A stretch of 64,000 nt of DNA. Source: Vermamoeba vermiformis. Lineage: Eukaryota. Made by a program: the position numbers and the translations under genes. The notes beneath the pieces were generated by a model. The model was not told the DNA's origin, searched no databases, and saw only the letters and a program-made list of their open reading frames with translations. The stretch lies in NCBI GenBank assembly GCA_045837725.1, contig JBEWZL010000179.1, positions 372,001 through 436,000 of the forward strand, read 5' to 3'. Positions within the stretch are counted from its first letter, which is position 1, and the number at the start of each line of letters is the position of its first letter. Positions 8,707-57,030 of this stretch are shown here, piece by piece.

Positions 8707-11700
8707 ATGTACAAAAGTATCGTCCTTGGGCTTTGCCTCATCGTTGCGCTTGTCTATGCGCACGAGGGCAAAAGTCACCACTGCATTCACGATGAGCTCG
8801 AAGTGAATGAAGGACGCAGCGCTATGGAATTTGAATTTATGAAGAATCCTAGCTCAAAAGATCAACGTGCTATTCAGCAAACTAACGCACCACCTCATGA
8901 TTACATGCGAACGAAGCTTGAGCCGGTGTTAGATGCTGATCCCAACACCTGTTACAGAGCGGGAGACGTTGTTCAAACTAGAAGTGGCCAGTCATATACA
9001 TGCACGCAGAGTGATATTATGTCGACCAATAAGCGCCAATACGTTATTGATATCGCCAACGAAGCACTTGCAATTCTATCTGAAACTTTGAAGGTAGTTC
9101 GATTGGCTTCATTAACTATTCCAACCACAACATGTGGATCAGCACCAGGTAATTTTTGCGTATTATTACAGCTATAATATCAAAAATAAGTGGATTAAAT
9201 AATGTCAGTTGTGAAAATCCGTTTCAAAAATCGGTGGAGATATAATTTACAGAAATCGAAATAATTTAGTTCATGCTTTAAATATGACTTATAATTTACT
9301 ATTTATTACGAGCCACTCATAATTTTTCATTAGTTAAGGCCATTACTATTAGCTTGTATTTTTCAATGCAGTTTTAATCTTTAATCACTCAATAATATAA
9401 TACTACGTATAAATAATAATATGCACACTATAATTGTGCATAAAAATGGTTATTACGTTATGCTAGCGTGTACCGCCAAGCTAACGGAGCGGATTCCTTC
9501 TGTAGAATGTACTAATCCTTATTATAATATAGGTGTTACCGTGCCTGATGCATACAAGAACGGAGGTGTTACTGGAATTGATTTCGTTCTCTTCTTGACA
9601 GCACGCCCGATCCCATCAACCAGCTCGACCTCGCAAGTTCTGGCTTATGCTTCCTCTTGCTGGGCTACGCTGTAAGACTTCGAAATTAGTATATGTATGC
9701 ATTATACTAAACATTGCTGGTGACAGGTACGGCCGCTCTATTGCTGGTCACGCCAACTTCAATCCATCTGCGCTCGATCTCGATCCAGCTTCTCGCAGAC
9801 GCCAAGTGGCTGTAGCGTTACACGAAATTACTCACGCACTTGGTTTCAGCTCAGGAAAGTTCGGAGACTTCATTCGTTGGGTCAATGCCACTGCTTATCA
9901 GAGCATCGACATTTCGGAGGTTTATCTGCAGACTACTTTGCCTGGCTGGAAGAGCGCCTCGTTCATCAAGTCACCTAATGTAGTGGCATTCGTACAAAAG
10001 CACTTTGGTTGCGATACTCTGCCTGGTGTAAGTAGTTCAGCGATTTTTTTGCGGATTTGCGAATTGAAAATTTTTCCTCGTGTTACAAAGATCGTCTTGA
10101 TGCTACACTATATTATTATCAATATTATGAACCTTCTTCTCTCGATTGCTAATGTTATCACCCCAGGCTGAAATCGAGGACGGTGGTGGCGGAGGTACCG
10201 CTGGATCTCACTGGGAAAAGCGTACATTCAACAACGAGTACATGACTGGCAGTGAAGTCGAGTGGTCTGTATTTAGTCCACTTACCCTCGCTTATTTTGC
10301 GGACTCTGGTTGGTATCAGATTGACGACACGAAAGCGCAGGCTTTGGTCTGGGGTATAAACCAGGTACGCGGAAAATTTTACAAATTTAAGAAATCATAC
10401 TCCGGTGGTATATAAATTAAGCCCATAGTATGACTCGGGAGTTAAGAAATTGAGTAACGGTCAGAAAATTATTGCGTTGTGGATCAAGTATTAAAACCCT
10501 TACAAATTGTTTAACTTCTATTAATTTTATCGATTTTGCTCGTGGATTATACGAAACTAATATTAGTACTGACTGCTTAATGCTCCCAAAATTTATTTCT
10601 GCTTCTTATTACGCGGATCATTTCACTCGATCGCGAACCAAACAGTCAACTAATAATCGCTAAATAGGGCTGTAATTTTGCGATGAAGCAGTGCTTAACA
10701 GGCAACTGGCCAACAGGCGGCGGATACCTCTGTCAAAAGAGTACGACAGGTGCATCCGATCCCACCTTTGACCGCGTTGGTTACGGCATTTGCAACTACG
10801 TTACATATTCATCGCCATTGCCCGCTCAGTTCCAGTAAGTATCTAGGACTGGTTGTGAGTTTGAGGAGTGATTAGTGGTTTAATGATGTTAATTCCTATG
10901 CTATACATCGAACACTCGAGTCGCGACACTTGGGTGTTGTGATAAAAATGTACCAAACTGAAATATAACCACTAATTCATTCTTCAAATTATTTTTTAGC
11001 TTTTAGCACAAAGCAAAAGCCCTAGAAATTTTTCTTTTGTATCATGGATCGTGATCTAATTATTGTCCGTAGGAACATTCCTGGCCAGCCTTCAGACGGA
11101 GGTGCGAGTCAATTGGCCGATTATTGCACGTACATTCAATACAACACACTGTGCACCAGTCAGCCCAGCGACTCCAGCGTGTTAAACACCGCTGAACAGT
11201 ACTGCGACACGTGTCGTGTGTTCCAAGCCAACTTGGGTTCAGTCGTCAACAAGAACTCGTGCTACAACATCACTTGTGCTGCGGACGATGATTTGCGCGT
11301 GCAAGTCGAGAGTATTTGGTACAAGTGCCCCATTGACGGTGGTTCAGTTCAGCCGTACAACTTTGAAGGCTCTATTGATTGCGAACCAGTACGTGTCGTG
11401 CTCATACAAATTTATTACTGTTTATTGATCCTCATATTTTTGCCACAGAAAGCAGCTGCTATTCTCTGTCCTCAAGTCGCGTTGCAACCCGCTGATTTGT
11501 GGCCTGTCTACGACAGTATTGACCCGACGAGCGGTGGTCCTGGCATCAACGTCACTATTAAGGGTATGAGTATATTGACATAGCCTTATTATTTATTTGA
11601 GTACTAATACGCGAAAATCAGGCAGCAACTTGAGCAAGGTCACGGCTATCAAGATCGGTCCTGGCATTTCAACCAGCGTGACAGTCGTTTCTGACACTGA

Positions 11701-17133: not shown

Positions 17134-19403
17134 TTAGTGTCGCCATATTTTCAAAATTCTGTCTTTCGAGCCAGATGCCACTCGTTGACCGTCAGGACTC
17201 CAATCTACCGTGTAAATCTAACAAAATTGTTAATACAAATACATTATATTATTATGACCAATAGAACAGCTTTAGACTCGGTTCTACGGATCCGATCTAC
17301 ATCCACTTACCTCATCCGCGTGGCCCGGCAATTGATTAATAACTTTTTGTTGTTTAACGCTCCACACTTTCAAAGTCGAGTCTTTTGAGCCACTAGCAAT
17401 CAAGCGTGAATCACTGGACCAGGTGACTTGATACACTTCTCCAATGTGTCCTCTGAAGGTGCCCAAATACCTAATGAAAATATCCTGTTAATACACAAAA
17501 AGCATATATATATAATTAGTACTGTTTTGTCTTACTTTCCGCTCGAGTTCCACAACTTCAAATTTTTATCGAATGAAGCGGATGCGATCAGAGTACCGTC
17601 CGGTGAGAATTGAGCGACGTTAATAGGCTTGCCGTGACCAGTCATGCGCAACAAAGGCTGCTTCTTCTCCGCAGGTTCCCACAAATACATCGTAAAGTCA
17701 TCAGATCCAGACACTAATTTTTCAGGACCTTTGCCTTTGACTTGTTCCCATCGCTCTTGTGCTTTCTTTTGAGCTAATACACAATGTCAGTTATTTGACA
17801 CGTGTCAACGAGTGTTGCAAATCATCGCGCGTACCTTCAGCAGGATCATCGTATCGTTTGCCAGTGTGATCGAAGGCACCTGTTCGCAGCACATAATCTG
17901 TGTTCAATGACAACGTGTTGACCCAATGTGCATGGCCTAAATACGACGTCACGAGAGTTAATAATGACGTAATTATTTCCTTTTTTGGCAATTACTAACC
18001 TGTCAGAGTTCGCACCAACTTGCCGTCCTTGTCAGACCAAACTTTAATGGTTCTGTCTTGACTCGCTGTGTAAATCAATCCTTCACCTCCCCATCTGACA
18101 ACACATTAGTACTAATATATTAATATACTATTATGTTAGCTTACTTGACTTGTGTAATAGATGCGGAGTGTCCGCCGAGAGTGAACAAACAAGTTTTCTT
18201 AGTCACGTCCCATACTTTAGCTGTACCGTCCTTTGACGCTGAAACCATTCTTACGCAAGTAGGGTTCCTATAATTAACCATTATTAATGCATTGTTTCAA
18301 TTAACAAATGTTTCTCGTGAAAAAATCGTTGTGAGAGTGCGTGTTTGCACGTCATTAACATTGCATAATTTTATGTAGTATTATTATCATTGCTATATAT
18401 AGTATGAAGGTGCCGAGTATAGTATACTATTCTATATTTACCTATGAACGGGCTCCCAATCGAGACTAGTAATATAGTTCTTGTGGCCGCGAAGTTCAGT
18501 GAAGAGTTCACCAGTTTCGCCTTCCCAAATACAAATCACTCTGTCCATACCTCCTGACGCTAATTTGCTGCAATCAGGGGCCCACTTCACGCACAACACC
18601 CAGTTTGTGTGATGTTTGCATTCCTAAATGAAATTATGGCGTGATTAGATCGAGCCACGCTAAGAGCTAAAATGGTATTAAATAATGAATTACCTTATAA
18701 GGAGTTTCAGTATCGGTGTCCCAAAGTCTAATTGTGGTGTCTCCTGAGCCCGATGCAAGTTTGCTGCCATCAGGACTGAAATTAACTGACAAGATCGCTT
18801 CAGTGTGGCCTAATGGTATTGAAATGAATATTAAAAATTATGTCGCTTAAGGAAAATATTAAAAATAATTATTTGAATCATTTTAAATGATTCGATTTTT
18901 GATCGCGATCCAAGCAAGAAAAAATACACGTAATAATTTTAATAATTAAGATTCGTACCAGGCAATGAACTCGTGCATCTAGTGACAGCTCTGACTCTAA
19001 ATATAGCTTGTGGTTGATAAACGACTTTCAAAACGTCTTCCTCATCTTGTTTGCCGAGGGCTTGAAGAGTTTGATGTAAGTTTGCAACAATTTCTTCTTC
19101 ATGAACGAAGAATGAATATGGTAGTTCTTCTTCCTATAATATTAATTATTAATTTTAAATATTATTTGGTTGGATTTGAAATTCGCATCGCGATCGGATT
19201 TGATCTTTGACGCTTTATATGATCGTCGCTATAATTGTCGTAATTAAATTACGTACATTTTTAAGAATATGCTCGTTTAATAAGGTGTGGAGTTGTTCGA
19301 CTGATATATCCAGCGGGATGGCCATTTGAGGACCTGTAGCCTCGCCATCTGTAGTATAAAATCGAGCAATAATAGTTTTATCTTGAACGTCAGAGTCTGC
19401 CAT
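17134..19403 (-). CDS. NLE1: Notchless/Rsa4 WD40 ribosome-assembly factor
   Basis: N-terminal NLE domain, [70 protein letters not shown] and C-terminal RILKIWRH. Confidence 0.97.
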
Positions 19404-25973: not shown

Positions 25974-28900
25974 TTAGAGAAGTTTCTTAATTTCTCCGAT
26001 ATGGTTCTTACGAGTTGATATATCTTTTCTCTTGCCGCACAGCAGATCCGTTCGGTACTTGTTCTTCATTTCGTAAAAGATCTTTGTGGTCAGATCCGTC
26101 ATTTTTTCTTTACGGCCCTTAGTAGTGAACTTGGAGAGCTCTGAATCCAAATCAGCCGATCGTTGCAAGAAGATATCATATTCCTCCTGTTGCTCATCAT
26201 TCTGGGCAGCTCTGTCAAGCAGATCTTGCGTGGCAAAAATGACTCGTCGAGCAGTCATAAAGTTATCTTCAGATTCAAGGCACATTTTGCCGCATTGTTG
26301 CAGACAGTTCAAAGCGACAGCAGCGACATCAATGTGCTTCTCAGCCTTCTTTCGTGAGGTCGTAACAGGAACTCTTTGTGTGATGACACGTTGACATTTC
26401 ATGCCGTTCATGCGCGTGTATTCAATCTGAACTTGTACGGGCAAGCTTTCAAACGGCAACTTCGCCTTCTTTTCTTGCTTGGCCTCGATGCTCTCGACAA
26501 GTTCTTTGCCCTTAGCCGACAAAGTGAACTCAAAGGTGAGATCAGACAACTGGTTGACGTTGCCAATATCGACCTTGAGCACGTTAGTCTCGGCACCTGC
26601 CTTCTTGTCCGATTTGGAACTCTTCGACTTCTTCTTGTTAGTGTTGTTCTCAGCGCCCTCAACGCGAACATCAACGGAGCCTTGACGGAAGGCAAGTTGC
26701 TCGGGCAGACGGAACTCCAACTTGACATCAGTGGCCAAGGTAGGGTTGTCAATGATGGCACGCATTTTGCGTTGGAGCTCGAGAGGCTTGACGATAGTGA
26801 CGTCACCACCAGTAATTTGAGCACATTTGCCCAAGATACCAAGACCGCAATCTTCGCCTTCGAGACCGATCACAGACACCGGAGTGTGGTGTTGAAGTGC
26901 TGTTTGGGCCAATCTGTCGTAGAACTTTTGCACTTGAGTCTTCGAGTCGGGCTTGTCCATGGCACCGAGACCAACGTTGCTAAGACCGTCAGTGCACAGA
27001 ATGACTGAGCCTTGAGGAGACTTCGAGGCCATAGCAATAGCGACGGTCAGTGCAGGGCCAAGCGCAGTAGCACCTCCTTCTTCGAGCGCCAAGATCTTGT
27101 CCGTGAGAGTCTTTTGACTTTCTTTGACCGGTTGAAGCTTGTCAATGGCCACGGTTTGACCGAGCTCCATGAGAGCCTCAAAGTTGTTCAACTTGTCACC
27201 AGCAATGACAGCTTGATTGCTAATCTGAGAACTGCCGTCACCGATCAATTGAACTTCGTTGTTGAACGTGATCAAGCAGACGCGTCTGTTGGGATGAGCT
27301 TTCTTCAACTCTTCGATTTGAATTTGAACTGCAGCTAACACGCACTCCATGCGAGAGATATATTGAATGTTGTGGCTCTGACGGGGCATGTACTGACTTG
27401 AGCCCTCCGCCCATTGATTGAACAACTCTTCGTCCTTCTTTTTCTTCTCGCCTTGCAATTGGAACAATCCAAAGCCCTTTGGGATCTCAGATGTCACGCA
27501 CATAGAACCGCTGATGTCGACGCAGAAGATGACGAGGCCTTGGTCTTCGTTCTTATCGACAGGTGCGGGTGCCTTCATGAAGTCAATCGCTTGATCATTG
27601 ATCGTGGCGTACTCTTCGACCTCTTCTTTGTCAACTTCGGTCTGGTTATTGCAAAACTCGCAAGTCCATTTGCCGTTCTTAATTTCCGAGAGCGGTGAGA
27701 ATATAGCATTGCACTGGGAGCATGAGATGGCATCACCAGTCATCATGTGGGCCTCACGGCCGAGCGTGCCAAAGCCAAGTGAGACGACGTTAGTGTCAGC
27801 CATTCGAATAGGCTCACCCTTCTTCTTCTTGTCGCCCTTCTTGCTCTTGCTGCCATCAAACTTGTCGCGGATTTCGAGGATCTTCATGCGGTCCTTGGCC
27901 ACGCTGAAACCCATGCTCTTCAAGAGGTCGTGATCGAGCTTGGCGAGGTCATCTTCAGTCAACTCGTTCTCTTCAAATTGTTTGACGTATTCGGCTGCCT
28001 TCTCGGCGCTAAGATCGCTCGAGCCAAAAAACTCTTTCCAGCTAAAGTCTTCGGATTTCTCTTTCTTCTCGTCCTTTTCTGCGGCCTTTTTCTTCTCCTT
28101 CTCTTCGTCTTTCTTTTTCTTCTTGTCGTCGCTGCTGTTTTCACGAGTGAACATTTTGCCGATCTTAGAAAAGAATCCAGAGCCAGGTGCTGATTTCTTG
28201 CGCTCAACACGTTGCTCATCGGGCTTGCGCAATCCAGCAATTGTCACTTGTTTTCGGTAACTACAAACAATTAGTATCGGTCTGCTTGCATTTATTAGAA
28301 TCTACTTACGAGTCTTCAATCGTAGGATCATACTCTTGGATGAAATCTGCCAATGGGTGGGTTAGATTATGAAGAGAAGAATGACGTTGACTTACGATTT
28401 TGAATAAATTGAACAGTAATGGCAGATTTGCCGACACCTCCAGAACCAACAATAACGAGCTTGTATTCAACTGATATACGAGGAATCATGCGAACAAGCT
28501 CGAAGATCGACTCTTCAATGTTGACTCGCGTTTTGGCTGAGGTTTCCATAAATGGAATTCCCCATTCTCGAGCCAGAAGAGCACCTTCATTCGTTGAGAC
28601 CTCTCGCTCATCAACCAAGTCAACTTTGTTGCCGACTAAAATACAGAAAGGGTGATCTGTGTCCTTGACGCGCTGAACTTGCTCGTAAATGCTTTTGGCC
28701 TCCTCAAAAGAGGATCTGCTCGTGATCGAATAAACCAAAATAAATCTGATTCTAAAGTTAGCCCCTGATCTTGACAAAAGACGAGGATAGTAATTACCCT
28801 TGGCCAGCACGGTAGTACTGATCGCGCATTGCGCTGTAAATTTCAAAGTTAATTTTTCTACGATGCCAATTCGTATGAACGTCACTAGTTACCTGTACTC

Positions 28901-47034: not shown

Positions 47035-48404
47035 ATGAGCAACGAACAACAATTCAAAGCATGGGCTGCCTTAGAACCAAAGGCTAAATTGACTGAATGG
47101 TCTTATACTCCTCGTCCTATTGGTCCTCGTGATGTCGAGATTGACATCACTCATTGCGGAATGTGCGGTACTGGTAAGTTCCCCGAAGATATTGGGATTT
47201 TTTTCACATCTGGTTACAGACATTCAAATGATTGACAATGGCTTGGGGTACTCGCGATTTCCTTTGGTGCCAGGTAATAAATCGATATAGTTTAATTGTA
47301 AGTTGTACTAATAATCGATTAAGGCCATGAAATTGTGGGCAATGTCACTCGTGTTGGCTCCGAAGTGACACGTGTCAAACTCGGTCAACGAGTCGGAGTT
47401 GGTCCACAAGTGCAATCGTGTCACGAGTGCAAGAACTGCTTGGACCATCAAGAGTCCTACTGCACCAAACTCGTGTTCACGTACCTCGGTGTTTATCCTG
47501 ATGGTCAACGAGCCCACGGTGGTTACGCAACGTAAGACCTAGTCAACTATATTATACTCTATGTTGATCTAATACGGCTTGAAGTAACGTGCGCGTCGAC
47601 GAGCGATTCACCTTTGTGATTCCCGAGAACTTGAAGTCTGAGGTACGCGTCCTATTTGTTGTTTCTCATCGCTATTCATTAGAACAATGCACTTATTCCT
47701 TATTAGGAAGTCGCACCCTTGTTGTGCATCGGCGTCACTGCCTACGCACCGTTCAAGCACAACAATGTTGGCCCAGGCAAGAGAGTCGGAGTGATTGGCA
47801 TTGGTGGTGTGGGCCATGTCGCACTCAAGTTTGCACGAGCATTGGGTGCTGAAGTTTACGCCATTTCAACTTCTGCTTCGAAAGAAGAAGAGGCCAAGAA
47901 ACTCGGTGCTCATCACTTCATCAACACCAACGACAAAGAGAGCTTGGCTAAGGTACGCCAATCATTCATATTTGTCTTATAGGTCTCGGGCCTAACAACT
48001 TCCATCAGTACCAAAACCATTTGGACTTGATCTTGTGCACGATGACCAACGAGAATGTAGACTGGAACTCGTTCTTTGGTCTGTTGCGCCGTGAAGGTGT
48101 GTTCCATCTGATTGGTGCGTTGGCCCATCCTATTCCATTGAACACTGGTACTTTCTTATTCAAGTAAGTTATATCACGTTTCGCTCGAGTTACCATTGCT
48201 CGATCTAACTTTTTGGTCAGGCGCGCGAATTTCTCCGGATCTTTCATTGGAAGTCCAGATGAAACGGATGAGATGTTGGCTATCGCTAGTAAGCATAACA
48301 TTACTGCTAATGTCCAAGTATGGCCTATTGAGAAGGTTAACGAAGCGATCGACAACTTCAGAAAAGGCAATCCGAGATACAGATACGTATTGCAATTGAA
48401 ATAG
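47035..48404 (+). CDS. Zn-dependent NADP(H) alcohol dehydrogenase, CAD/YahK/AdhC family, copy A (6 introns)
   Basis: CGMCGTD, PGHEIVG, structural Zn site SCHECKNC...YC, APLLC, GIGGVGH and RYRYVL. Confidence 0.95.
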
Positions 48405-52282: not shown

Positions 52283-52562
52283 AACGTACCAAGATCCGGA
52301 GTTTACAAGAACCAGATTTGACGGCGTGCCTTTCTGCTTATTTTCATTTTTCGAGCAACTACTTACGAAAATTAATTGTAATCTTGCCGAAACGAACACC
52401 TGGTGCCAAATTTGATTCGGCTTTTTGTACATCCGTCGAGTTTTCTGAGGCAATTAGAAGAAATATCGATAATTTGTGCTACGCAAAGATATTTAAAGGC
52501 AAGTTGTTATCGGCACTATTCACTAACAAACCTACCAACAAACAACAACAAACGACTTCAAA

Positions 52563-52784
52563 ATGAGCGACAATTATTACCACGCTGTTAAAGCCACGGA
52601 TGCCGCTATGGGCGAAGAGGCTCACCACTACAACGCTGAGGCCGCTAAATATCGAGCCAAAGATCCTACTAGAGGCATTGTTGAACGCGCCGAAGCTACT
52701 GGCCACTATGTCTCGGAGAAGATGAAAGAAGGCGGCGACAATCTCTCTTATCATCACCACAATGAGCAAGCAAAGCACTTTTAA
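52563..52784 (+). CDS. Small hydrophilic Grg1/LEA-like stress protein (73 aa)
   Basis: Intronless ATG ORF after an A/C-rich leader. AKDPTRGIVERAEATGHYVSEKMKE resembles, from memory, the fungal Grg1/Ccg-1 pattern. Confidence 0.55.
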   Translation: MSDNYYHAVKATDAAMGEEAHHYNAEAAKYRAKDPTRGIVERAEATGHYVSEKMKEGGDNLSYHHHNEQAKHF

Positions 52785-53096
52785 ATATACCCAAGTATAT
52801 ATAATGTAAATAAAAAACATTACAACTAGATTACAATGACTTTGTACCTCTGGCACCTTTTTTTTTTGGCCGGATCGCCAAGTCAGATCCAACTGACCAG
52901 AAATTTGAGTATACTGCTCTTATAAATCTACTATTTGTCGGAGGGTAGTGTAATAGATGTTTCAGGATTCCGTCCGTTCCAAAGAATGACATTCTACGAG
53001 GAACTTTCTTTTCGGCTCATTTTCAAATAAATTGGAGCACGAAAATAATGCCAGAGAAATGGGCACTGATGAATTTATTAAATAAAATATCCTGCG

Positions 53097-54516
53097 ATGG
53101 AGAGAAATCATCAATTTGGAACTCTTCCTCCCGAGGTTTGGTGTCACATCCTTTCTTACACTCAAGATATTAATGATGTGGTCGATCAAAAATTCGTCAA
53201 TCGATTATTTTATCACGAACTTGCTTCGAGGGACCCATTCAAGGCCTTAGATAGTTCGCTTAAAATTTCAAAAGGTAAATAAATTATATTATTGCGTAAT
53301 TTATTTATGTTTGATTCATACAGAATGCATAAAACACTTAACCAGCAGAGATACATTGTATTCTCTTCCTCGAGAGTATTTATACCTGTAAGTACAATTC
53401 CATCCGAATCTGCAACGATTTAACCAGATGTTCTTAGAGCGCAGCGCAGCTCAATTAGCGTCGTGCACAACAATGAATTTCATTTCAAAACTATCTTCCT
53501 TGGTGCATCTGGCGTCGGAAAATCAGCGTTTTTGACCTCTTTTGTTGTACGTTCTTGTCCAGATTTACTTCGCTGTCTAACCTAATGGCTTCCAGAAAGG
53601 GCGATTTGAAGAACTATATGAAGGGACTATAGGATGTGCATTTGTAAGTAGAACAATTGACGTCGCAGGCTAGTTACTGATACAAGACTAGTTCACGAAG
53701 AAGCTCGTGGATCAGGATAGAATTGCCACTAAATTTGAACTCGTAAGACTATTAACTTCCATTATGATCGGTCTAATGATCTAATAATCTAATAATTTAA
53801 TTTAGTGGGACACTGCTGGCGTAAGTTCAATTAAATGACACGTGTCAAATCTGCTGATCCACGTAACTAATTTGACTGCCGTTCAGCAAGAAAGATTCGC
53901 GAGTTTATCACCCATCTACTACAGGCACGCGCGTGCAGTGCTGCTCTGTTTCAGCATTGACGATAGAAAGAGCCTCGTCTCGCTCTTGACTCGGTTCTTG
54001 CCCGAGGTGTGCAATTCGTTTAAAAGCAACAACCCCGAGGACCAGCCAGTGATGTACTTGTTGGGACTCAAATCTGATCTCGAAGGGAAGCGAGACGTAT
54101 CGACCACTGAAGCGAAGGTGAGACTCAAGTCAACTTGACACGTGTCAATAGATATTTTTCACGTGTCAAAAACTACGAACCAATTTTTATCTCAAAATAG
54201 TTAAACCTACTTTTTCCTTCTATTTGTCGTCATATCGTTTGTTACTGATGCTCTTATCCAGTTTATTGCCCGAGCACTGAAGATGAAGTACTTTGAGTGC
54301 TCAGCGAAGTTAGGTCACAATGTGAATGAAGTCATGGAGTCGTTGAAAGACGATCTGCTCAAAGCTGTTCGGTACGTTTGCGAACACTAATAAGACCATC
54401 ATTTGCTTTCATATATAACATATTATTATAGGGTGCCTGGATTGGAGGTCCCCGCTCCTGTACGAACTCCAGAGAGACCCAAGATTACACATATTTGCTG
54501 GTGTTCGATACAATAA
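53097..54516 (+). CDS. F-box/Rab-like small GTPase fusion with C-terminal CaaX, 9 exons
   Basis: F-box LPPEVWCHILSY...KFVNRLFY splices in frame to FKTIFLGASGVGKS, YEGTIGCAF, WDTAGQERFASLSPIYYR, GLKSDL and FECSAK; ends CWCSIQ*. Confidence 0.85.
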
Positions 54517-54893
54517 GCACTAGCAGTCGTTTTTTTTGACAGCACAATTTCGCTCGACTTGGATCATTTGCATAAAAACGAACTTTAAGATGTGGATCTC
54601 AAAGTGCGTGATAACGTAATTGTACGTAGAATGCGATTTTGTGCCCACGTGCGCGAATATGTTTAAATTATAGAACTCGCGCAACTTGTCGTCGTCAACC
54701 ACCATGAACGCAATGTCAAGTGCCACGGTGTCATCGAGTTTGTGTGGCTTGTTGAGCATTGACGAGTGAACCAAAGACCGACACCATCTTCCCTGCGTCT
54801 TCTCAGTAGTAATGATTTCACCTACACGAGCATCATTGGTTCAGGAGTCTTTCCTTTATTTATTGTATAGTTTCACAAATGATCTCTGACCTA

Positions 54894-57030
54894 TTAGTTG
54901 TTCTTAGCGAATTTGGGGTTGATACCAGCCAAAATTGACGGGTTGAATAGCACTGTGGCAGTCACTTCAGCGACACTTTTCGCCATCTCGTCCAATACTT
55001 GTGTGTCGATATTGTCAACAGTGTCGCACGCTTTATGGTAGCAAGGCTGATGATATAATAGGTTAGTTATTAGAAATCAAATGTGATGAAGTTGGATGCG
55101 TTGACACGATCCGGATCGTCAACTGCAGTCGAAGACGACTTACATCATAGGAAGCGTAAGCCACACCACCAAAGAGCTTTCTCTCCTCCAGAGTCTTTTT
55201 GCCCTCAGCACCAGTGAACAAACCACCAGCGGGAATGCCATTAGCAATGAAAGGAGCGTAGTCCGAACGACCGTCCAACGCGACCAACGTGAAGGCTAAG
55301 TCTTGGCTCTGGAAATAACCCTCGAACAGTTTTTGGGTCAAAGTTGAGCCGTTACGCAAGTCCTCAGGAGCAGTAGAACCATCACGAATGCCACGTATGA
55401 AGTTAGGCGAGCCCGACATGTCAAAGTTGAGGTTGAGCGCAATCCGAGCGAACTGATCCGGGTGATTGCGCTTCAAATCTCTGACGTAGTACTTTGAGCC
55501 AAGGAGACTTCGTTCTTCAGATCCCCACCATGCCAATCGCAGCTGAGCAGGTGAATCTTGCTTGAACATTTTAGTCTCAGCGACGATGCGCGCGAGAGCC
55601 AACAAAGTGGCAGTACCGGATCCGTTGTCATTGATACCAGGACCAGCAGGAACTGAGTCCAAGTGAGCACCGACGACAACAACAGGTCCTGAAGCAGGAC
55701 CAGACAAAGGTTCGGCGAGAATGTTGAAAGTCATGTTCTCTGTTGCAGAAATCTTGTTAATGCCGGAATTCATTCAGAACACGAAAAGTCCGCGAAAATA
55801 GAAAGAGATGTTTGGTTTTTGTAATGAATGACTTACTAATAATTACATTGTTACCAGTGACGTGAAGAGTGACAGGTTGGGTCTCGTGCAAATCTTTCAA
55901 CATTTTGCCAGTTTGGTTGGTGAGCGTAAATACGGGGAAAGTAACGTTGGACAAAGTTTCGGCAGACGGGAGGCCGGTTCTGTTGCTGTAAACCAACAAA
56001 GCACTAACATTGGCAGCCATCGCATGGAGCTGTCAGTGTCACGCAAAGTCAATGCCTGTCACGTGCTACAAAGTATTAAACAGTCGCGGACTTACGGTCT
56101 TTTGATCGTAGTCGCAGACACCTCGCAAAACGAGGGCAATGTTGCCTGCAGGGAAACCGGCCCAATCAACTGCATCGCAACCAACGTTTTGGACTAGAAA
56201 AATTTTTTTTCAGATCCAAAGTATTACTAAATTAGGAAAATGATTGAAATACGGCTCAATTTCTAATTGCTAGATTCACCAACCAAATTGTCATTCAGGA
56301 TTGACTTACCGACAGAAATGTTAGCAATAACGTCACCAGATCCGGAGAAGTAGACTTCCTCAAAGTCAATGTCGTAAGTGAAGTTGTACGGATTTGGGTT
56401 CACTATAGCTAACGTGGGCTTGGCAAGTTGACGGTATCTAACGTCGTATGGGAAGTCTTGACGCTCGACCTTGAAGTAGCCGTAGCTGTTCAACGTGTCC
56501 ATTACGTATTGACCAGTCACATTGTAACCTAAAAATAGCATTAGAATCGTTTCGGAGCGCTCCTTCGCAAGATCCAACCGTTAATTCGAATTTACGCAAG
56601 AATAACTTCTTAAATATTTATAATATTCTTACCGTCGGTTCCAACCGCTCGAGTTCCATTATTAGCGTAAGCAAGATCTTGCAGTGTTTGCTTAATTCGG
56701 AAAATTAGATCTAACGCCTAATAATTACATGACTGTGAGCGTACCAATGTCGTCATAATTTCTTCGATAGTCATGCGAGACGAGAAAGTTTGGTTTAATC
56801 CGACGGATGCATTTCCAGCAGGGGGCTCCGAATGTTGCCACACCGAGAAAGTAATGGCAGCGCCAACCAAAGCACCAAGGATTAAAATGCCCAATTATTA
56901 AAATATACATCCTGCCGCGAGAGCGCGCTTGCGGCTATAAATAAGATAAAGATTAGGACAAATCCAGATCACGATTGGTTAAACTTACGGGAGAGGCCAC
57001 TAAGGGCCGATTTTCTTCGTCGCTGTGCAT
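54894..57030 (-). CDS. M28 aminopeptidase with PA domain (aminopeptidase Y/SGAP-like), N-terminally membrane anchored
   Basis: RAVGTDGY, IALVLRGVC (PA), GAHLDSVPAGPGINDNGSG, WWGSEE, NFDMSGSPN, GRSDYAPF, GGLFTGAE and YDPCYHKACD. Confidence 0.95.

Follow-up and report, generated by a model that had tools for sequence, protein, structure and literature searches.

Can a ubiquitin-ligase adaptor and a membrane-attached Rab be encoded by one gene, and what would such a protein do? The question is raised by a locus of Vermamoeba vermiformis, situated at positions 53097-54516 (+) of a 64,000-nucleotide stretch of DNA (GenBank assembly GCA_045837725.1, contig JBEWZL010000179.1, positions 372,001 to 436,000 of the forward strand), which is referred to here as the window. 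An initial annotation had proposed that this locus fuses an F-box (a motif for docking to ubiquitin ligases) to a prenylatable Rab-like GTPase. We find the F-box/Rab gene to be intact, spliced from nine exons, expressed and subject to purifying selection. Judged from sequence, the architecture of its product is that of a Rab5-derived, CaaX-tailed family of putative F-box GTPases of Vermamoeba-like amoebae, with a change of the G4 motif throughout the family.

Gene structure and transcript evidence

The window stretch 52500-55200 was translated in its three forward frames, the splice borders were located, and nine exons were joined by coordinates. The resulting model amounts to 891 nt (296 codons followed by a TAA stop) without internal stops, and frame translation places an in-frame TAA 15 nt upstream of the ATG. 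All eight introns (48-144 nt) are of the GT..AG type, and the GC content is 0.44 in the exons and 0.18-0.45 in the introns. Both the single frame over nine GT-AG exons and every motif that the initial annotation had quoted were recovered in place on this spliced model. The encoded protein comprises an F-box-like head (residues 8 to ~45), a conserved linker of ~50 residues, a Rab-type G domain (residues ~96-262) and, behind a variable tail, a CaaX box, distributed over the exons as follows.

53097..53274 (+): exon 1, with the start codon, the F-box-like head and the onset of the conserved linker
53124-53159 (+): exon 1 motif LPPEVWCHILSY, residues 10-21 (motif check on the spliced model)
53190-53213 (+): exon 1 motif KFVNRLFY, residues 32-39 (motif check on the spliced model)
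53232-53252 (+): exon 1 linker motif DPFKALD (spliced model)
53324..53387 (+): exon 2, linker joining the head to the GTPase; both flanking introns removed in the X1 contigs described below
53359-53376 (+): exon 2 linker motif YSLPRE, conserved in the homologues P0154 and P0148
53438..53546 (+): exon 3, last part of the linker, then strand beta-1 and P-loop G1; Pfam Ras positions 1-20
53502-53525 (+): exon 3 G1 motif GASGVGKS, residues 103-110
53596..53643 (+): exon 4, switch I including the G2 Thr; an X1 contig lacks introns 3 and 4
53626-53634 (+): exon 4 G2 motif TIG, residues 128-130
53692..53742 (+): exon 5, strands preceding G3; covered by an X1 contig with one difference, F134Y
53806..53820 (+): exon 6, 15-nt micro-exon encoding WDTAG, the first part of G3
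residues 151-157 (+): G3 motif WDTAGQE (spliced model)
53887..54117 (+): exon 7, carrying the catalytic Gln, switch II, residues inserted relative to Rab5 and the changed G4
residues 158-168 (+): exon 7 motif RFASLSPIYYR (spliced model)
54067-54078 (+): exon 7 altered G4 motif LKSD, residues 216-219
54262..54371 (+): exon 8, G5 and last helix; Pfam Ras 130-160, 21.6 bits
54298-54309 (+): exon 8 G5 motif CSAK, residues 245-248
54432..54516 (+): exon 9, tail of variable sequence with the CaaX box and TAA stop
54502-54513 (+): exon 9 CaaX motif CSIQ, residues 293-296

Expression is documented by run X1, a set of Logan contigs labelled as RNA by guess alone and taken to be RNA from their missing introns. 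It provides three contigs that are 95-99 % alike to the window gene. One of them, of 236 nt, splices 53103-53272 to 53322-53387, that is exon 1 to exon 2; another, of 747 nt, begins with the last 11 nt of exon 1, continues through exons 2 to 9 and ends at 54536. The exon 1-exon 2 junction is therefore present in two contigs, and the 15-nt exon 6 is seen as letters between the joint 53742/53887. Since all eight introns are absent, at the modelled borders, X1 would be complementary DNA of a close relative, in which one messenger RNA would carry both the F-box exon and those of the GTPase. The initial annotation had looked to RNA junctions between the first exons, and to any transcript start downstream of the F-box exon, for a decision on the fusion: the X1 contigs join exon 1 to exon 2 and run through exon 9, one contig beginning at 53103 within exon 1. 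The listed differences between X1 and the window are synonymous third-position changes in 13 of 13 cases, including four of four in exon 1, the F-box exon, and six of six in exon 7. More differences were counted than listed, so that a few lie outside this tally; those identified beyond the 13 are F134Y, at an exon edge, and one synonymous change.

Raw reads from three RNA-seq runs chosen by species label (X6-X8) were also considered as transcripts of the window gene and rejected as such. Most of them align only partly to the gene stretch (144 of 151, 143 of 146 and 74 of 75 reads, respectively); they cover exons 1, 7 and 8 at 90-99 % likeness, in several variants, and run into unlike sequence. 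Partial alignment and divergence point rather to related expressed genes with a similar head in a related organism. Of their listed variant entries, 17 out of 26 are synonymous.

As a separate observation, the 10-mer CACGTGTCAA is found in eight copies in the window (0.11 expected; none of 100 shuffles reached eight), half of them in introns 6 and 7 of the F-box/Rab gene. The palindrome TTGACACGTGTCAA occurs twice, at 17795-17808 and 54135-54148, and may be a regulatory site of the E-box/G-box type. The sites obtained from the 10-mer count are given in one line.

53839-53848, 54135-54148, 54160-54169, 97-106, 17795-17808, 47369-47378: CACGTGTCAA sites, those at 17795-17808 and 54135-54148 being the palindrome TTGACACGTGTCAA

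A family of homologues

An exhaustive HMMER search with exon 7 returned 140 proteins at E <= 1e-3, of which 10 reached E <= 1e-10. The close matches are mostly fragments: P0002 (97 % identical, 116 residues), P0004 (65 %), P0005 (69 %), P0007-P0010 and P0013. Among them P0005, a Vermamoeba vermiformis transcriptome fragment in EukProt, is the sole family member with a taxon name. Full-length relatives were obtained by cluster look-up, namely P0154 (297 residues), P0148 (291 residues) and P0039 (301 residues), the cluster of the latter holding three further near-identical members. These relatives sit on environmental contigs of 0.9-2.3 kb, a size which, set against a coding sequence of ~890 nt, makes them look like spliced metatranscript contigs, as they probably are. 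Identity to the window model is 57 % for P0148, 56 % for P0154 and 35 % for P0039, and over the first 95 residues it is 53, 48 and 26 %, respectively. The window protein and the three relatives have one layout in common: a head with LPPE[VI]W..IL, a Ras-family domain and a C-terminal CaaX box, the C-termini reading CSIQ, CLIQ, CSIL or CSVM.

Several routes to further members were followed. The first 95 residues of the model, compared with 141 collected proteins, matched P0039 only (E 1e-4; next best 0.097). Word-index searches gave one candidate for exon 1, which did not score, and one match among 48 candidates for exon 7. A family-profile search produced 4363 matches among 8000 candidates, dominated by ordinary Rabs, and among the 120 matches listed only P0039 covered the head. 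In a scan of metagenome contigs with the same profile, the best 80 loci were all ordinary Rabs (28-42 % identity), and a tblastn comparison of four N-terminal heads with those 80 loci yielded nothing at E < 0.25. The word-index searches and the metagenome scan gave no additional members, and the family looks small in the collections searched.

Many of the better exon 7 matches were proteins with two to four tandem Ras-family domains (P0006, P0027, P0104, P0061, P0014 and P0032). They were considered as one family and set aside, as their cluster names, from a fungus, a bivalve and a fly, suggest merged gene models of tandem Rabs. The cluster names of 10 further GTPase matches pointed to nothing but unrelated taxa and gene models in which tandem Rabs were merged.

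The GTPase domain and the C-terminal tail

Placed exon by exon, the Pfam Ras profile (PF00071) runs colinear with the gene: exon 3 at positions 1-20, exon 7 at 58-128 (E 6.6e-13; 49 bits, above the cut-off of 21.6) and exon 8 at 130-160, with 21.6 bits just at that cut-off; the homologues score 107-135 bits. The G1, G2 Thr, G3 and G5 motifs are intact (GASGVGKS, TIG, WDTAGQE and CSAK). Regarding the class of GTPase, exon 7 alone finds weak Rab matches in the PDB, with Ypt6, Rab14 and Rab9 on top. For the full-length P0148 the best 20 PDB sequences are all Rab5 (A/B/C), RABF2b or Ypt51 (84-97 bits), followed by Rab22A (80 bits) and other Rabs (<= 77), and the 60 matches listed are without exception Rab, Ypt, Sec4 or RABF. 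An AlphaFold model of P0148, whose G domain has a predicted local distance difference test (pLDDT) score > 90, matched Rab5 best in Foldseek (1tu3_A, E 1.4e-16, 37 % identity), all rows listed being small GTPases. Furthermore, 13 proteins labelled Rab5, Ypt5 or Vps21 by their source match the spliced window model at 95-120 bits, and nine labelled RABC2a (Rab18) at 86-98 bits. With Rab5 ranking first in the PDB, Foldseek and spliced-model comparisons, score rankings, as distinct from a phylogeny built on a full set of reference Rabs, make the window GTPase a divergent member of the Rab5 group. The complete, Rab5-like GTPase domain of the initial annotation is thus borne out by motifs, Pfam Ras and rankings.

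The G4 motif reads LKSD and does not conform to NKxD, a change already pointed out in the initial annotation. It recurs as LK[SV]D in the alignment of the window protein with P0154, P0148, P0039 and the three near-identical mates of the latter, and in seven of the eight family fragments, the other one, P0007, reading LRSD. P0039 additionally carries Asn for the switch-I Thr and Ala for the catalytic Gln in this alignment. A Thr at the position of the NKxD Asn is tolerated in Rho-family GTPases. With LKSD in place of NKxD, nucleotide affinity is probably lowered in the window GTPase, and nucleotide handling may be atypical in the whole family. In Ypt1, the mutation N121I at the NKxD Asn abolishes binding of both GDP and GTP, and the mutant sequesters its exchange factor (PMC2120555). 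The family-wide change of Asn to Leu falls on that same position, which puts in doubt the “GTP-gated” adaptor envisaged at first.

The Ypt1 mutant also prompts a bolder reading, in which the family is a “dominant-negative-like” Rab5: the nucleotide-poor G domain would clamp a Vps9-type guanine nucleotide exchange factor (GEF), and the F-box would pass the GEF, or other partners of the nucleotide-free state, to a Skp1-Cul1-F-box (SCF) ubiquitin ligase. By this analogy the protein would constitute a built-in degrader of Rab5 activators at the membrane that holds the farnesyl tail. It would also be a version in cis of the Roy1-Skp1-Ypt52 logic discussed below, and a possible intermediate toward nucleotide-free receptors such as FBXO4. 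We regard it as quite improbable.

The tail of the window protein, CWCSIQ, does not qualify as a Rab double-Cys motif (CC, CXC or CCXX). A few Rabs also end in CaaX. The single CaaX-type signal with an upstream Cys described at the outset is present; in the homologues, which end in RWCSIQ, RWCLIQ, RWCSIL and RMCSVM, the upstream Cys is Arg or Met, so that only the single CaaX is conserved. A Gln in the X position favours farnesyltransferase, and the Cys of CSIQ is therefore predicted to be farnesylated. The CSIL tail of a paralogue would presumably favour geranylgeranyltransferase type I.

The N-terminal head and a proposed function

Is the head an F-box? Exon 1 matches the Pfam family F-box-like (PF12937) with E 0.0019 and 18.3 bits, residues 8-39 lying on profile positions 2-32. 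The head of P0039 matches PF00646 (E 5.5e-4, 20.2 bits vs a cut-off of 20.5) and PF12937 (19.1 bits), and that of P0148 a Pfam F-box at E 0.04 (14.1 bits). The profile positions matched, 2 to 32/33, are alike in the three proteins, and no competing Pfam family appeared in the scans of exon 1, P0039, P0148 and P0154. Nine head residues are invariant in the four sequences (L10, P11, P12, E13, W15, I18, L19, V34 and F38); compared with the general F-box consensus, the head contains the LPxE-hydrophobic core and the later helix with V-x-x-x-aromatic. Also, the Atlas feature search of exon 1 had an F-box cluster as top match at 0.95, a level that, as stated by the tool, ~1 in 100 shuffled proteins reach, and its 10 best family-assigned matches all belong to the F-box clan. 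On these sequence features the head is very probably a true F-box homologue. The initial claim of an N-terminal F-box is accordingly backed by consistent Pfam, Atlas and core-residue evidence, but not by any profile match above the gathering score.

Taken together, head, GTPase and tail suggest a membrane-bound SCF. The CaaX Cys would be farnesylated, anchoring the protein on an endosomal or phagosomal membrane as in the case of its Rab5 relatives, and the F-box-like head would bind Skp1. From a membrane anchor joined to a Skp1-binding head it would follow that the protein brings Skp1-Cul1 to that membrane, where the Rab5-like domain would act as the substrate- or partner-binding module of the ligase, in the way of the degenerate GTPase domain in FBXO4; Rab40 plays this part for Cul5 and RhoBTB for Cul3. 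A domain with LKSD may select its partners through a state that exchanges nucleotide fast or holds little of it, instead of a classical cycle driven by GEFs and GTPase-activating proteins. The whole chain seems to us about equally poised between right and wrong.

A number of observations weigh against it. The F-box-like score of exon 1 (18.3 bits) lies below the 24.3-bit gathering cut-off; no F-box match of the window protein, P0039, P0148 or P0154 attains the Pfam gathering score, and the Pfam scan found no F-box match in P0154 at E <= 0.05. A head profile run against 177,635 PDB sequences had a single match, the F-box of FBXO42, which is not significant (E 0.38). AlphaFold modelled exon 1 (four sequences) as one long helix at pLDDT 61.1, too poor for use, and residues 1-80 of the full-length P0148 (30 rows) at pLDDT 41-56, and neither of these low-confidence models of the head shows an F-box fold. 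On the side of the GTPase, the Asn-to-Leu change in G4, at the position of Ypt1 N121I (PMC2120555), suggests that the domain may not switch at all, and P0039 is devoid of both switch-I Thr and catalytic Gln. As regards transcripts, the evidence does not extend upstream of 53103, and X1 bears its RNA label by guess alone, its RNA origin being deduced from the missing introns.

The shortcomings of the head could mean that it is not a working F-box, but a helical, lineage-specific addition to a Rab5 paralogue that looks like the first helices of an F-box and has another role, for instance dimerisation or autoinhibition. Sub-threshold Pfam matches confined to profile positions 2-33, the lack of such a match in P0154, the absence of a confident three-helix F-box in the AlphaFold models and the PDB search at E 0.38 would all fit. 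Nonetheless, three sequences with 26-53 % head identity match one family at the same positions, with no competitor; neither the LPxE...IL core nor the V-x-x-hydrophobic-F stretch varies, and the Atlas score of 0.95 is one that ~1 in 100 shuffled proteins attain. We consider a head of this kind quite improbable.

If the head does bind Skp1, it could do so without a cullin and regulate, in endocytic recycling, either the Rab5-like domain fused to it or the cell's own Rab5 pathway, which would be the logic of yeast Rcy1-Skp1 and Roy1-Skp1-Ypt52 fused in cis. Roy1 is a non-SCF F-box protein that, together with Skp1, binds the GDP-bound or nucleotide-free form of the Rab5-like Ypt52 and blocks its activation (PMC3084679), and Rcy1, with an N-terminal F-box and a C-terminal CaaX, acts at early endosomes (PMC2175155). 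Such a non-SCF complex also fits the Rab5-like window domain and the G4 change, which suggests a nucleotide-poor state. Against this, a sequence relation to Rcy1 or Roy1 was not among the results seen, no such comparison having been made, and the present data do not separate cullin-bound from cullin-free Skp1 complexes. We take a cullin-free complex to be unlikely.

Lastly, the F-box might simply render the GTPase short-lived through auto-ubiquitination by SCF, producing a rapidly cycled Rab5 paralogue. F-box proteins commonly auto-ubiquitinate, and such a self-turnover tag hence overlaps with a membrane-bound SCF. It has been suggested for TbFRP of Trypanosoma brucei, although its role is not demonstrated there either (PMC3593210). 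The conservation of the 50-residue linker and the head (48-53 % identity in P0154 and P0148) suggests a structured module and not a simple degron. We judge a mere turnover tag very improbable.

Other features of the window

Other frames of the window were noted in passing. About 310 bp upstream of the F-box/Rab gene there is a His/Ala-rich open reading frame with a weak, sub-threshold match to Grg1 (glucose-repressible; E 2.7e-4, 21.5 bits vs 25). Two peptidase frames have no obvious connection in function with the F-box/Rab gene. Two neighbouring frames on the reverse strand, one with the C-terminal half of a Ras-family domain immediately followed by the start of a second one, may on their sequence form a tandem-GTPase multi-domain gene.

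52563-52781 (+): 73-codon His/Ala-rich open reading frame
55063-55773 (-): peptidase M28, E 2.4e-33
9599-10171 (+): leishmanolysin M8, E 3e-11
28367-28888 (-): end of one Ras-family domain and start of the next
25974-28301 (-): 775-codon frame just downstream on the same strand, with SAM, Sec23/24 zinc finger and trunk/VWA matches

Significance

Where a small GTPase is fused to a cullin adaptor, one can see how a cell links the identity of a membrane to the degradation of proteins nearby. To such fusions the present family would contribute one of the Cul1/Skp1 type, whose scaffold is a Rab5 left almost intact and whose anchor is of the farnesyl type. The free-living amoebae in which the family occurs are the natural hosts of Legionella, and AnkB of Legionella uses the same combination of F-box and CaaX. 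Members with intact catalytic residues, considered beside P0039, which has lost them, could illustrate the path from a switch GTPase to a passive substrate receptor like FBXO4. Moreover, the natural Asn-to-Leu replacement in G4 poses a direct biochemical question on nucleotide binding.

Comparison with known systems

No characterised example had been known to the initial annotation, which was mistaken on this point, as TbFRP, FBXO4 and the prenylated F-box proteins Rcy1, FBXL2 and AnkB precede the present case. A literature search for described fusions of an F-box with a Rab turned up only TbFRP and a Naegleria paper (Herman et al., 2021). A broad survey of Rabs names only three Rabs with an extra domain and does not mention “F-box” in the main text searched (PMC3425129). 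The main-text parts searched of papers on Acanthamoeba Rabs and on the Dictyostelium Skp1 interactome lack “F-box” or “GTPase”.

TbFRP is a 63.8-kDa protein with FYVE, F-box and Ras-like GTPase domains, reported by its authors to be restricted to Euglenozoa; its FYVE domain binds phosphatidylinositol 3-phosphate for membrane attachment, and an endosomal role has been proposed, that of the F-box being unclear (PMC3593210). Compared by architecture and not by sequence, it resembles the window protein in that a single polypeptide carries an F-box and, downstream of it, a Ras-superfamily GTPase (PMC3593210). It differs in its N-terminal FYVE, in place of which the window protein carries a CaaX box; Pfam found no FYVE domain in exon 1, P0039, P0148 or P0154.

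The nearest Atlas neighbours of P0148 are Rab40/SOCS-box clusters at 0.80, followed by FBXO4 clusters at 0.78-0.79, both being leads only. FBXO4, in which we know of no CaaX box, shares with the window protein an N-terminal F-box followed by a domain of the small-GTPase type. Its GTPase domain is degenerate and is not known to bind nucleotide, whereas G1, G2, G3 and G5 are intact in the window protein. FBXO4 was not found among the head-profile matches in the PDB at E <= 10, nor among the 50 Foldseek rows listed. Rab40 (SOCS box, Cul5) and RhoBTB (BTB, Cul3) are likewise small GTPases fused to a cullin-adaptor motif; theirs are C-terminal SOCS box or BTB domains serving different cullins, not an N-terminal F-box, and Pfam detected no SOCS_box in exons 8 and 9 or in the homologues. 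The “atypical small GTPase domain” of FBXO4 is described as its substrate-binding module (PMC7086354), while a second FBXO4 review does not contain the word “GTPase”.

Prenylated F-box proteins provide the precedent for the other half of the architecture. Rcy1 combines F-box and CaaX at early endosomes (PMC2175155), FBL2 has a predicted conserved prenylation site (PMC1847700), and the Legionella effector AnkB is an F-box protein farnesylated at its CaaX on the vacuole membrane in amoeba hosts (PMC7830128). Having both an F-box and a C-terminal CaaX, Rcy1, FBXL2 and AnkB bring Skp1 binding to a membrane, as the window protein would. For binding partners they use not a GTPase but a Sec10-like region, leucine-rich repeats and ankyrin repeats, respectively.

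The G domain itself has its best sequence and fold matches in Rab5, Ypt51 and RABF2b, with KFE[IL]WDTAGQER and YYR in common. It departs from Rab5 in reading LKSD where the latter has NKxD, and in 11 extra residues that P0148 has before strand beta-5 relative to Rab5A (the window protein has four fewer than P0148). The double-Cys tail of Rab5 is also replaced by a CaaX tail, and a 95-residue N-terminal extension is added. As similar fusions have been described in trypanosomes and animals, the F-box/Rab gene of Vermamoeba is an extension of known biology, and not a new principle.

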